A stretch of 44,924 bases of DNA. Origin: Candidatus Moraniibacteriota bacterium (GTDB taxonomy: Bacteria; Patescibacteriota; Minisyncoccia; Moranbacterales; GCA-2747515). Positions 30,751 through 33,877 of this stretch are shown here, piece after piece (position 1 is the first letter of the stretch; each line of letters starts with the position of its first letter). Where the stretch lies: the NCBI GenBank assembly GCA_030592425.1, contig JAUVJK010000002.1, positions 1 to 44,924 of the forward strand, in the 5' to 3' direction. Both the position numbers and the translations under genes were made by a program. The notes under the pieces are model-generated. The model did not search any database, had not been told where the DNA came from, and saw only the letters and a program-made list of their open reading frames with translations.

Positions 30751-30780
30751 AAAGACACTTAAAATGTGTCTTTATTTTAT
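30751..30780 (+). terminator. Terminator after pnp
   Basis: AAAGACAC-TTAAAAT-GTGTCTTT followed by ATTTTAT. Confidence 0.7.
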
Positions 30781-30795
30781 TACACTCAAATATCT

Positions 30796-32142
30796 ATGTT
30801 CGGTAAAAAGAAAAATCAAAATAGTCAATCTCTTTCACAATCTTCCGATAATATTTCTGTCCATACCATGCAAGACGATATCAACACAATGAACGGGAAG
30901 CCACAAGCAGCACTAGAGCAACTAGGAGATTCCCCTAGCAATGCACAGCAACCGACAGTCGCGTCAGCTCCTCAAGAGACTAAAAGCGGTAAGCCATTTG
31001 TTGTTACAGCAGCAAAAATAGCTACATCACAAAAACAATCGCCAGAAAAAATCTCAGATGTTGATGGAATAATTCCAGAGCCTAATACTCTAGATCATTC
31101 CAGTCCTTTTGCTGATACAGATTCAATACCTCCTAGTGCCACATCTGAAGCATCTCAAGAAAGCGTCTCAATAGCTGCACAACAACTTGCAGCTGACAAC
31201 ACTCAATCAGCAACGCCTCAGTCGAAAAGTAGTCTACCAGCAAATTCACCTTTTAATGCACCACCAGCTAATCAAGCTGCCAAATCTCTCCCTCAAACAC
31301 CAACTGTAGGAAATCCACCGACGCTTGAAAATGAGATCTCCAAGATTCAACAAGAGTATGGTGAAATACAAAATTCAGATGATACCCCAAAAGCAAAAAA
31401 AGCTTCCTGTATATTATTTATTTTTATTATTCTTATCATTTTGATCATTGCTGGCAGTGGTTATTACTATTGGATGTCACAAACACCAGATGCGGACACA
31501 ACACTTGTCGAGATCGGAAAAGATACCTACAATGACATCGTTAATGGCGATGACACTATTACCAAGGAAGTAGATCAACAAACGCATGAATATTCTCAAA
31601 CACTTCCTCATTATATTTTAATCGATACACAAAGTGATACAGCCCTTAACGATTTCACTCAAAAGATAGAAACAATCAAAGAAAATATCAGGACACAACA
31701 ACCGCTCAGCGCAATTTCCTTTATTATTACTGATGAAAATAGTAAGCCTCTTTCATTTGATCAATTCGCACTCTTAACAGGCATAACGCTGCCACAAGAA
31801 GTATTAGATCAGATTGATGAATCATTCCTTCTTTATGGCTATTATGATAATGGTGAAGTCCGGCTTGGTCTATCAGCTCAAACTATTGATCCTGACTTAG
31901 TACTCAATGCAATGAAAGATGCTGAGCCGACACTTGTCATGGCTCTCAGACCACTCTTTGCTGGAGAAGTACCCGAAACAACAACTCCGACATTTACTGA
32001 TGGCATATACAATCAAACACCTATTCGCTATGCGAATCTCAATACCATTGAAACACTCTCTATTGATTACGCAACCTATTCTGACGACCTCGTGATCGGA
32101 ACAAGTAAAGAAACGATTCGGGCAATTATTAATACACTCTAA
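30796..32142 (+). CDS. Hypothetical single-pass membrane protein with a disordered Ser/Gln/Pro-rich N-terminal half
   Basis: TM segment CILFIFIILIILIIAGSGYYYW near residue 205. Start taken at the MFGKKK ATG 30796, because the track start (GTG 30766) lies inside the pnp terminator stem. Confidence 0.65.
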   Translation: MFGKKKNQNSQSLSQSSDNISVHTMQDDINTMNGKPQAALEQLGDSPSNAQQPTVASAPQETKSGKPFVVTAAKIATSQKQSPEKISDVDGIIPEPNTLDHSSPFADTDSIPPSATSEASQESVSIAAQQLAADNTQSATPQSKSSLPANSPFNAPPANQAAKSLPQTPTVGNPPTLENEISKIQQEYGEIQNSDDTPKAKKASCILFIFIILIILIIAGSGYYYWMSQTPDADTTLVEIGKDTYNDIVNGDDTITKEVDQQTHEYSQTLPHYILIDTQSDTALNDFTQKIETIKENIRTQQPLSAISFIITDENSKPLSFDQFALLTGITLPQEVLDQIDESFLLYGYYDNGEVRLGLSAQTIDPDLVLNAMKDAEPTLVMALRPLFAGEVPETTTPTFTDGIYNQTPIRYANLNTIETLSIDYATYSDDLVIGTSKETIRAIINTL

Positions 32143-32180
32143 AAATTTCATTTCTATTCCTTTTTAAGTATTTTTCTTGG

Positions 32181-32255
32181 TTATGCACATGATATTCATT
32201 AAAATGTGAATATACTGAGTAAATTCATACGAAATAGTGGATAACATGTGGATAA
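32181..32255. promoter_or_regulatory. Cluster of DnaA-box-like 9-mers
   Basis: TTATGCACA (32181-32189, 8/9), AGTGGATAA (32236-32244, 8/9) and TGTGGATAA (32247-32255, 9/9), compared with TTATCCACA/TGTGGATAA. Confidence 0.35.
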
Positions 32256-32373
32256 GTTTGACAATTTTATTAAGTAATTTTGTTAAAAAATCGATCAAAT
32301 TTTCCATAAACAAAAAAGCACCTAGTTTAACTGTCAATTATCCTTCTATTAGTGCATTATTGGCCACATCATA

Positions 32374-32402
32374 TTGACGAAAGCCTTTTTTCCTGCTATA
32401 AT
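32374..32402 (+). promoter_or_regulatory. Near-consensus promoter TTGACG-17-TATAAT with no downstream CDS
   Basis: TTGACG 32374-32379 and TATAAT 32397-32402. Confidence 0.55.
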
Positions 32403-32552
32403 GGATTTATCAGATGACAAAAGCACATTTAAAACCAATATGGTAGAAGTATTTCCAGTCACAATTTCCCCCTATTTGTGATTGGAATACTTCTACTATT
32501 CTATAGAGACACAAACATGTGATCTCTCGTCAGTATTTCTCTCGCTGACACC

Positions 32553-32591
32553 AAAACAAAAATAAAAATCTTTTTAAAACAAAAATAAAAA
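32553..32591. repeat. Two 16-nt A-rich direct repeats AAAACAAAAATAAAAA
   Basis: Copies at 32553-32568 and 32576-32591. Confidence 0.8.
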
Positions 32592-32897
32592 ATAAAAAGT
32601 AATCAGTTCTTTACAACAGGGGGCATCCATAGAATAGTACGAAGGAAAAAGTTTCATTTTGATTCAAAAGAATCATCGAAGAGAAAATGAAATGAAAAGA
32701 TATGTATAAACTCGTATGTGAACCTGGTAACATAGAACATTGCGTTTCCTCACCCGGACGTAAGATATGTTCAACAGTTACATACTGATATATATCAATA
32801 GTTGGGCACCACCCACATATTATTATTATAGGGGCTCGGTGCCCAACAAATCCATTTAGATAAATACTCATAAATGATTTGTTGGTAATTATCTCGT

Positions 32898-32926
32898 AAA
32901 AAACACCGTCATGCACGGTGTTTTTT
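32898..32926. terminator. Bidirectional intrinsic terminator
   Basis: AAAAA-ACACCGT-CATGC-ACGGTGT-TTTTT. Confidence 0.8.
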
Positions 32927-33012
32927 ATTTACTTCAATAATAAAGCCTTTTAAAGGAATGTCGAGAGCGCATTGGCTTTCCTCTATGAGCAACTTCACGC
33001 TATACTTACATT

Positions 33013-33423
33013 ATGCTATTTGATCATTTCAAAAAAAGGTCACACGCCTCCGTAGGAAAACACGGGGAAGATCTTGCGACAGTTTACTTGAAAAAAAAAC
33101 ATTATAAGATACTCACGCGCAACTATCGCAACAAATACGGTACACAAGTTGGCGAAATTGACATTATCGCCAAAAAGAAAGACCTTCTTATTTTTGTAGA
33201 AGTAAAGACACGAACCGTTTCATCTTCTACGATCGAACAAACACTTCCAGAGGAACAGATCACTGCAGTGAAATTACAACGATTACAAAAAGCTGCAACA
33301 GTATATCTCCATGAAAATAATGTTATCAATTTACCACATCGATTTGATGCAATCAGCATCAAGATCTTTAACAATAATGAACAACCACCAATCATCGATC
33401 ATATAAAGAGTATTTTTTTATAA
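33013..33423 (+). CDS. yraN: YraN family (UPF0102) endonuclease-like protein
   Basis: GKHGEDLATVYLKKKHYKILTRNYR...GEIDIIAKKKDLLIFVEVKTR pattern. Confidence 0.8.
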   Translation: MLFDHFKKRSHASVGKHGEDLATVYLKKKHYKILTRNYRNKYGTQVGEIDIIAKKKDLLIFVEVKTRTVSSSTIEQTLPEEQITAVKLQRLQKAATVYLHENNVINLPHRFDAISIKIFNNNEQPPIIDHIKSIFL

Positions 33424-33517
33424 AAGGAAATAATATATTTTTTACAATGCTTCCAAAATAGACAACTTCTCTTGATTTTGATACACTAAAACTATAAGAA
33501 GACTAATAAACAAGCTT

Positions 33518-33877
33518 ATGCCTCTCTCACAAGAAGTCCAAAATAGCCTCAAAGAGCAACTCCTTTCAACAAAGGAACGTATTGAAGGTGAATTAAGTCG
33601 CTTCAGCAAATCATCAGCTGATGGCACTGAATTTAAGACAAAGTTTCCAGATGATATCGGATCAACAAATGATGAAAACGCTACTGAGGTAGAAGAATAT
33701 ACTGACAATCTTGCAATTGAAAAAGATCTCAAAGAACAATTAGATGATATAAATGACGCATTGAAGAAAATAGAAGCTGGAGAATATGGCAAAGATGAAG
33801 AGACAGGGGAAGACATCAATCCAGAACGACTGCAAGCATACCCAGCAGCACGTACCAATGTGCGTGATACCGCATAA
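33518..33877 (+). CDS. DksA/TraR-like protein lacking the four zinc-finger cysteines
   Basis: Coiled-coil N-terminus. The C-terminal AGEYGKDEETGEDINPERLQAYPAARTNV aligns to G.YG.C..CG..I...RL.A.P.A..C..C, with the Cys positions reading D, T, T and R. Confidence 0.6.
   Translation: MPLSQEVQNSLKEQLLSTKERIEGELSRFSKSSADGTEFKTKFPDDIGSTNDENATEVEEYTDNLAIEKDLKEQLDDINDALKKIEAGEYGKDEETGEDINPERLQAYPAARTNVRDTA

Follow-up and report, generated by a model that had tools for sequence, protein, structure and literature searches.

A large structured RNA of Candidatus Moranbacteria, very likely a new noncoding RNA family

The stretch of DNA analysed here (the window) comprises 44,924 nt of a Candidatus Moraniibacteriota contig, JAUVJK010000002.1, in which an 870-nt spacer separates the gene of a 458-residue membrane protein (30766-32142) from yraN (33013-33423). 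Within this spacer lies a plus-strand promoter-to-terminator unit that a sequence-only reading of the DNA had proposed to encode a large structured noncoding RNA. We conclude that the unit is very likely a real and independent gene for a structured noncoding RNA of a new family, ~520 nt in length, a level of confidence that refers to this identity claim alone. The promoter is near-consensus, as had been proposed, and was the top-scoring site in a promoter scan across 31500-33600. The stem, A-run and T-run of the intrinsic terminator were all read. This terminator was found by a custom script and was not listed by a standard scan; the A/T runs, by extending the stem into the tail, are the probable cause. 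The longest plus-strand open reading frames (ORFs) within the unit are 35 and 30 residues, and none reaches 60 residues, again as first read. To judge from these signals, the RNA is probably made as its own transcript and strongly expressed.

Multiple lines of evidence support this identification. First, the unit is conserved. In blastn comparisons with 40 relatives, the apex of the first hairpin (P1; Table 1) showed 83-97% identity in many families of the order, and the A-rich tract and P1 were colinear. A 21-nt degenerate pattern of the P1 apex, which we used to scan sequence records and metagenomes, matched at least 119 species records and at least 120 metagenome contigs. Nearly all of the species records carry the name of Candidatus Moranbacteria/Moraniibacteriota or of unclassified Patescibacteria; among the matches listed, no metagenome contig was transcript-sized and all were at least 1 kb. 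With a covariance model of the 5' part of the RNA (R1), one locus and no more was detected in each of 133 genomes out of 151 from the order, representing 70 of 77 genera and 12 of 12 families, and a model of the 3' domain (R2) detected the RNA in all 5 of the R1-negative genomes tested (four genera). At loci L322-L326 (genera g24, g14, g5 and g9), unrelated hairpin sequence takes the place of the P1 apex and its CCCCC loop, and the lower P1 stem, the A-rich tracts, block H and the 3' domain are kept. Neither model matched any of 145 genomes from other orders of the class, for which 19 candidates per genome were scored under strict filters. These results strongly imply a single-copy, near-universal gene of one order of ultra-small bacteria, Candidatus Moranbacteria, of the Candidate Phyla Radiation (CPR). 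The signals that delimit the unit are also maintained: an extended -10 element is present in 97 of 103 homologues, a -35 element lies at 16-18 nt in 96 of 103, and a terminator follows P1 by 460-550 nt in most. From promoter to terminator, 75 homologues span 417-768 nt (median 542).

Second, the helices are backed by compensatory changes beyond controls. In the 5' part (P1 and P2; 99 sequences aligned to R1), 95.9% of cells were paired versus 74.7% in shuffles, 22 of 27 pairs were compensated, and slid registers gave 33-47% pairing. In the 3' domain (81 sequences aligned to R2), pairing was 95.5% versus 74.3% in shuffles, 29 of 30 pairs were compensated, and slid registers gave 21-52%. None of 500 shuffles reached the observed pairing in the 5' part or the 3' domain. 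The original proposal had been staked on conservation and covariation in relatives, and both are found, with promoter and terminator conserved in well above 100 species and abundant compensatory change in the helices. A promoter and a terminator that belong to the unit itself and that relatives share, together with compensated helices, mark it as a very probable stand-alone noncoding RNA gene.

Third, coding capacity was considered and rejected, as the ORFs are short, variable in length and not conserved. In homologues, the median length of the longest ORF is 46 residues (plus strand) or 53 residues (minus strand); the ORF starting at the conserved AUG of P7 mostly runs to 6-10 codons. What speaks for a protein gene is a 101-residue minus-strand ORF (32611-32916), whose protein homology had been named as a point on which the proposal would fall; it matches no Pfam family, and relatives do not preserve it. 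Compared with shuffled sequences, folding energy is strand-asymmetric (z = -9.8 for the plus strand and -4.9 for the minus strand), which together with the compensatory changes and G-U pairs argues for selection on RNA, not on DNA.

Finally, the unit corresponds to no catalogued RNA family. At gathering scores, Rfam 15 (a test that took in OLE, ROOL, GOLLD, HEARO, raiA, 6S, signal recognition particle (SRP), RNase P and transfer-messenger RNA (tmRNA) as well as ribozymes) had no match in 32100-33050. At E values up to 10 it returned noise only, the best score being 26 bits on the terminator against a gathering score of 54, and 19 homologous loci gave 0 matches. The Rfam check that had been suggested for the spacer thus bears out the initial failure to recognize tmRNA, RNase P, SRP or 6S signatures. 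In the literature searched, no paper linked Moranbacteria or the CPR to such an RNA.

Table 1. Features of the RNA gene and of the DNA just upstream (positions in the window).
Feature	Position	Strand	Remarks
DnaA-box-like 9-mers AGTGGATAA and TGTGGATAA	32236-32244 and 32247-32255		11 bp apart; upstream of promoter, outside transcript
Sigma-70-type promoter, TTGACG-17-TATAAT	32374-32402	+	11/12 matches plus TG extension
Predicted RNA, ~518 nt	32409-32926	+	start placed from -10 element, end from terminator
P1 hairpin, 24 bp	32440-32499	+	helices 1+2: 95-99% paired, 14/19 pairs compensated
X, lower 5' strand of P1	32440-32449	+	pairs with Y
P1 loop UUUCCCCCUAU	32465-32475	+	invariant across most genera
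Y, lower 3' strand of P1	32489-32499	+	pairs with X or H
P2 hairpin AGAGACACA...TGTGATCTCT	32505-32527	+	7/7 pairs with both-side changes
P3 hairpin GTCAG-N11-CTGAC	32529-32549	+	loop 32534-32544
UUUCUCU in P3 loop	32536-32542	+	proposed partner of 32680-32686
A-rich tract AAAACAAAAAUAAAAA	32553-32568	+	invariant A columns in alignment
P4 (CUUUUU/AAAAAG)	32570-32599	+	loop repeats A-rich motif
GUUCUUU segment	32606-32612	+	from alignment
P5, small hairpin	32619-32628	+	from alignment
Block H, AUAGAAUAGUACGAAGG	32629-32645	+	can pair with Y plus next 4 nt
P6	32652-32692	+	from computed fold
AGAGAAA in P6	32680-32686	+	proposed partner of P3 loop
P7, long-range two-part helix	32701-32719 with 32780-32796	+	helices 1+2: 15/16 pairs compensated
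P8a and P8, inside P7	32735-32772	+	P8 loop holds UCACCC, 32750-32755
P10, GC-rich stem GUUGGGCACC...GGUGCCCAAC plus inner 3-bp stem	32801-32847	+	14/14 pairs compensated; 98% and 88% paired
Intrinsic terminator	32898-32926	+	A-run, CACCGU stem, 5-nt loop, ACGGUG, U6; bidirectional in form

The comparative data strongly imply that the RNA folds into at least ten helices arranged in two halves (Table 1). All of the helices named in the sequence-only reading are present, and those tested have covariation support in relatives. The first hairpin had been placed at 32443-32496; the hairpin itself stands, and its extent is corrected in Table 1. The long-range stem GTTGGGCACC...GGTGCCCAAC of that reading is P10. 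Of 104 homologues, 89 have a hairpin immediately 5' of the A-rich tract, where P3 is represented by 64 different stems. Similarly, the UCACCC loop of P8, in the context YUCACCC, is present in 99 of 104 homologues on ~40 different closing stems. The A-rich single-stranded motif AAAAYAAAAAYAAAAA is present twice. P7 is built from four CAUGUA-like segments; local hairpins were considered for these segments and set aside, as covariation at the would-be loop columns favours the long-range helix. Pairing of the 5' leader with the GUUCUUU segment was also rejected, having shown no consistent covariation by eye.

The two halves of the RNA appear to be tied together by a contact between the P3 loop and P6, as judged by complementarity in relatives. 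Covarying pairs at these positions include UUCUGAC:GUCAGAA, UUCUGAG:CUCAGAA, UUCUAAC:GUUAGAA and CUCUAAC:GUUAGAG, and further pairs in relatives are UCCUGAG:CUCAGGG, CUCUGG:CCAGAG and GUUCCCGG:CUGGGAAU. The loop-loop complementarity score was 6.84 compared with 6.15 +/- 0.14 for permuted partners, and none of 200 permutations reached the observed score. In the window, the P6 partner sits in an internal loop, and the contact there is predicted from complementarity only. Other ornate RNAs self-assemble, and contacts read here as intramolecular could instead form between molecules.

The Y strand of P1 has two mutually exclusive partners, X and block H, the latter ~190 nt downstream, and both pairings covary. 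X:Y pairing was 93.9% versus 78.8% in shuffles. H:Y pairing was 86.0% versus 79.3% in shuffles, a modest gain measured on 33 sequences in a MAFFT alignment, with slid controls at 34-58% and 40 double-change cells versus 17.8 +/- 3.2. A change from GUUC:GAAC to GUCC:GGAY falls outside X:Y (20 U-A, 9 C-G), and in lineages with a strongly different Y (for example CGUGAGUAC), H has changed in step. These patterns probably reflect two alternative folds, or a refolding that would follow processing of the long P1 duplex.

Mutually exclusive helices are also what a cis-acting leader might use as a switch, with the terminator controlling read-through into yraN, a dksA-like gene, lspA and comM. The yraN gene starts 86 nt past the terminator on the same strand and follows the RNA in 79 of 103 loci. 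The promoter scan found no plus-strand promoter between the terminator and the start of yraN (32927-33012), and therefore yraN, the dksA-like gene and lspA may depend on terminator read-through in this genome. The adjacency of yraN, the competing helices and the promoterless interval (32930-33013) speak for a leader. Against it, at least six lineages (L042, L059, L112, L145, L147 and L148) have a convergent gene next to the RNA, or a yraN displaced by kilobases, and nonetheless keep the RNA and its terminator, and the RNA is therefore not an obligatory leader; the constant position directly upstream of and co-oriented with a regulated gene, expected of a leader or riboswitch, was not found. 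Moreover, a distance of at least 250 nt, with no overlap, separates the competing helices from the terminator downstream, and the whole pnp-to-comM block is syntenic, so that adjacency alone says little. We consider a leader role very unlikely. The leader or micro-peptide alternative offered by the sequence-only reading finds no support on either count: the length of the small ORFs is variable, and several lineages have the downstream gene on the opposite strand.

The only constant neighbour of the RNA gene is the membrane-protein gene upstream. The N-terminus of its product is lysine-rich and leads into a conserved F-x-V-H-T-M-x-x-D motif. After this motif come a long cytoplasmic stretch of low complexity, a single membrane helix and a C-terminal domain of ~200 residues. 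The protein belongs to no Pfam family, falls only in 'hypothetical' clusters of a protein atlas, and gave a weak DUF3352 echo in one relative. We considered it as a lineage-restricted partner of the RNA, an idea that its wider distribution, given below, does not support. Examination of loci beside relatives of this protein in 16 genomes of other orders yielded one convincing look-alike of the RNA gene, L351:1732-2280 or, in wider bounds, 1696-2280 (genome G370, from another order of the same class). This ORF-free unit of ~540 nt has a promoter, a terminator and a folding z of -7.3, and it lies in the gene order membrane-protein relative, unit, dksA-type gene, lspA. It contains the A-rich motif, a GUUCUUU...AAAGAAC helix, a AGAACUAGAAG block and a nested GC-rich stem, and R2 scored it at E about 0.03-0.04 only. 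It is a possible distant homologue, which we take as a lead only.

DnaA-box-like sequences are strongly concentrated upstream of the RNA gene. With one mismatch or fewer allowed, DnaA boxes occur at 4.3/kb in the 350 nt upstream of homologous RNA genes, compared with 0.49/kb in the flanks and 0.13/kb in the RNA itself. A box is present at 80 of 93 loci, mostly reading TGTGGATAA on the sense strand of the RNA; the proximal box has a median position of -147 from the -35 element, and 11 bp is the commonest spacing. The RNA locus is 40-53 kb from dnaA in two complete relatives (G014 and G278). This proximity, the conserved box pair and the A-rich region would suit a replication origin or other DnaA-bound DNA, in which the A-rich tracts would serve as an unwinding element and the hairpins would be incidental. 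GC skew decides against an origin (oriC): in G014 it stays negative throughout, between -0.15 and -0.24, to either side of the RNA locus (496 kb) and changes sign at 535-545 kb, at dnaA, with the cumulative minimum at 535-540 kb. By skew, then, oriC in this complete relative is at dnaA, 40 kb away, and the RNA locus is not the origin. There is no GC-skew turn at 32 kb in the window either, and the flanking genes share a strand. The DnaA boxes also lie outside the transcript. Thus a cluster of DnaA boxes is present and a skew change at the locus is absent, and we regard an origin as extremely improbable.

The upstream box pair may instead be a DnaA-titrating or DnaA-regulated site. Like datA and DARS of E. 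coli and the clusters of B. subtilis, it combines at least two consensus boxes at helical-turn spacing in an intergenic position, lies tens of kb from oriC and is conserved among relatives. It differs from these clusters in having just 1-5 putative boxes, always beside this RNA gene, and we know of no counterpart of the RNA gene at known DnaA-box clusters.

Within the identity claim, our tentative reading of function, to which we give somewhat less than even weight, is that the RNA acts in trans as a ribonucleoprotein scaffold. The C-rich loops (UUUCCCCCUAU and UCACCC) and the two copies of AAAAYAAAAAYAAAAA would be binding surfaces, and competition of X and H for Y would give two states. In one coherent model, the perfect 22-24-bp P1 duplex would belong to a precursor that RNase III could plausibly cut; once P1 had been cut or opened, Y could pair with H, closing the 5' domain around P2-P5. 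The DnaA-box pair ~150 bp upstream could tie expression of the RNA, or its locus, to DnaA.

Several points weigh against the explanation as a whole. Kinship among the sequences inflates all of the shuffle-based measures, and H:Y draws on the small alignment described above; for both reasons we grade the fold switch as no more than likely. Transcription, ends and abundance are predicted from sequence signals. No partner protein or target emerged when the 16S 3' end, Hfq and the membrane protein were tried. The C-terminal domain of the membrane protein is present in 59 of 145 genomes of other orders in which the RNA was not detected, and it therefore lends no support to a specific partnership with the RNA. 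Lastly, the CCCCC loop is replaced in four genera and so is not essential to a universal function.

Identity with one of the universal bacterial RNAs was weighed against their occurrence elsewhere. RNase P RNA was rejected: RF00010 matched in 40 of 40 relatives, at loci other than the homologues of this element, and RNase P RNA was not found in the 97-contig assembly that holds the window. The tmRNA of the genome is on another contig (G000:C71:6200-6619, 103.5 bits), and ARAGORN finds none in the window. For 6S RNA, there was no RF00013 match in the genome or the region, and the multi-helix fold lacks a long helix with a central bubble. The element has no SRP-type helix 8, even at E values up to 10. 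More broadly, RF00169 and RF01854 matched in 0 of 40 relatives and 0 of 151 genomes of the phylum, and nothing was found in 5 genomes at E up to 10. The Ffh M domain SRP_SPB (PF02978), a DTAGR motif and a PS00300-type signature were not found in the assembly, the 40 relatives or the 151 genomes. A full SRP54 GTPase domain (PF00448) was not found either, with only partial matches of P-loop length; controls for these searches were positive in genomes that are well known. SRP may be truly absent from these bacteria or have diverged strongly, or a first-look search filter may miss it. As the SRP proteins were not found either, an SRP RNA would have no binding partner. The idea of a strongly diverged SRP, 6S or RNase P RNA draws on the failure to find RNase P, small SRP and 6S RNAs in the genome's own assembly and on the lack of SRP RNA in the relatives. 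Given the evidence above, a diverged universal RNA or, as discussed earlier, a protein or micro-peptide gene is hardly credible.

Other observations concern the window and its assembly. The group I intron model RF00028 matches at 1142-1370 (83.9 bits), inside a tRNA cluster and between tRNA-Phe (926-998) and tRNA-Gly (1536-1608). ARAGORN calls no tRNA around this match, and an intron-split tRNA gene may be present. The assembly (G000; 97 contigs, 91% complete) yielded neither a 16S gene, including its 3' end, nor RNase P RNA. Relatives have both the 16S 3' end and RNase P RNA, and their absence here therefore probably reflects gaps in the assembly, not losses.

The size of the RNA, its long-range helices, its tertiary contact and its invariant islands, kept in a lineage that evolves fast, are typical features of RNAs that are catalytic or machine-like, and a ribozyme or self-contained RNA machine would have P7, P8, P10 and the loop-loop contact as its active-site core. 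The RNA matches no ribozyme family of Rfam 15, its context points to no substrate, and we know of no demonstrated catalysis for the equally ornate folds of OLE, ROOL and GOLLD. We therefore judge a ribozyme improbable. A bolder idea would join several of these threads in a lineage-private RNA machine, a catalytic RNA or membrane-linked ribonucleoprotein, fold-switched between X:Y and H:Y, perhaps once an RNase III-type enzyme has cut the long P1 duplex, and encoded at a DnaA-coupled locus, that performs a housekeeping task in cells seemingly without SRP proteins or SRP RNA; as speculation, this is a long shot.

Large, intricately folded bacterial RNAs are rare, and RNase P, tmRNA, group I and group II introns, OLE, ROOL and GOLLD each opened new biochemistry. 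The RNA described here is single copy, has a strong promoter and is present in nearly every sampled genome of a whole order, which argues for an important function. The bacteria of this order have discarded much of the standard gene set, yet they keep the RNA. The new features brought out here are the loop-loop contact, the competing partners of Y, the UCACCC loop and the conserved DnaA-box pair. At ~520 nt, with at least ten helices, a testable loop-loop contact and a two-state helix, the RNA is a defined target for metatranscriptomics, probing and cryo-electron microscopy. The DnaA boxes raise a possible link of a structured RNA to the replication initiator. A new family here would mean that CPR genomes hold RNA families absent from current catalogues.

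Among known systems, small RNAs of the RsaE/RoxS type (RF01820) resemble it in their C-rich hairpin loops, which are unpaired and might bind ribosome-binding sites rich in G, and CrcZ sponges (RF01675) have conserved, repeated single-stranded A-rich motifs, as do the two AAAAYAAAAAYAAAAA copies here. By analogy, the Moranbacteria RNA might be a base-pairing regulator, with UUUCCCCCUAU and YUCACCC as seeds, or a sponge whose A-rich tracts titrate an A-rich-binding protein. Its C-rich loops are single-stranded, and their conservation far exceeds that of its stems; these parts give weak sub-threshold Rfam echoes; and one of three sites complementary to the L1 loop elsewhere in the genome lies ~8 nt before an ATG. 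Those echoes are far under the gathering scores, at ~20 bits versus 79 for RsaE and 13.5 bits versus 95 for CrcZ. Unlike RsaE/RoxS, the Moranbacteria RNA is ~five times larger, and its 520 nt, ten helices, long-range pairings and tertiary contacts are far more elaborate than seed-type small RNAs; one of its C-rich loops is dispensable in some genera, as CCCCC is absent from four whose RNA is otherwise kept. Unlike CrcZ, it has only two motif copies and a mostly rigid fold, and Hfq, considered as a reader of the A-rich tracts, was not found in the genome. Pairing of the C-rich loops with the 16S 3' end (helix 45, GGGUGA) was rejected as well: of 14 relatives, 13 have GUAGCGGAAGC as helix 45, and the GGGUGA stretch is variable. 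A regulator or sponge is on balance unlikely.

The noncoding RNA family that we propose compares more broadly with OLE RNA (RF01071), ROOL, GOLLD and raiA. It differs from these in having no sequence or structure match to them, in its phylum (CPR) and in having its own promoter and terminator instead of lying inside an operon; unlike OLE-type systems, its neighbouring membrane protein is also found in genomes without the detected RNA. As in OLE, whose gene ole adjoins oapA, the neighbourhood beside a membrane-protein gene is constant. Like OLE, ROOL, GOLLD and raiA, the Moranbacteria RNA falls in the size class of ~0.5-0.6 kb, combines many strongly covarying helices with islands of invariant nucleotides, and is present in single copy and confined to one bacterial lineage.

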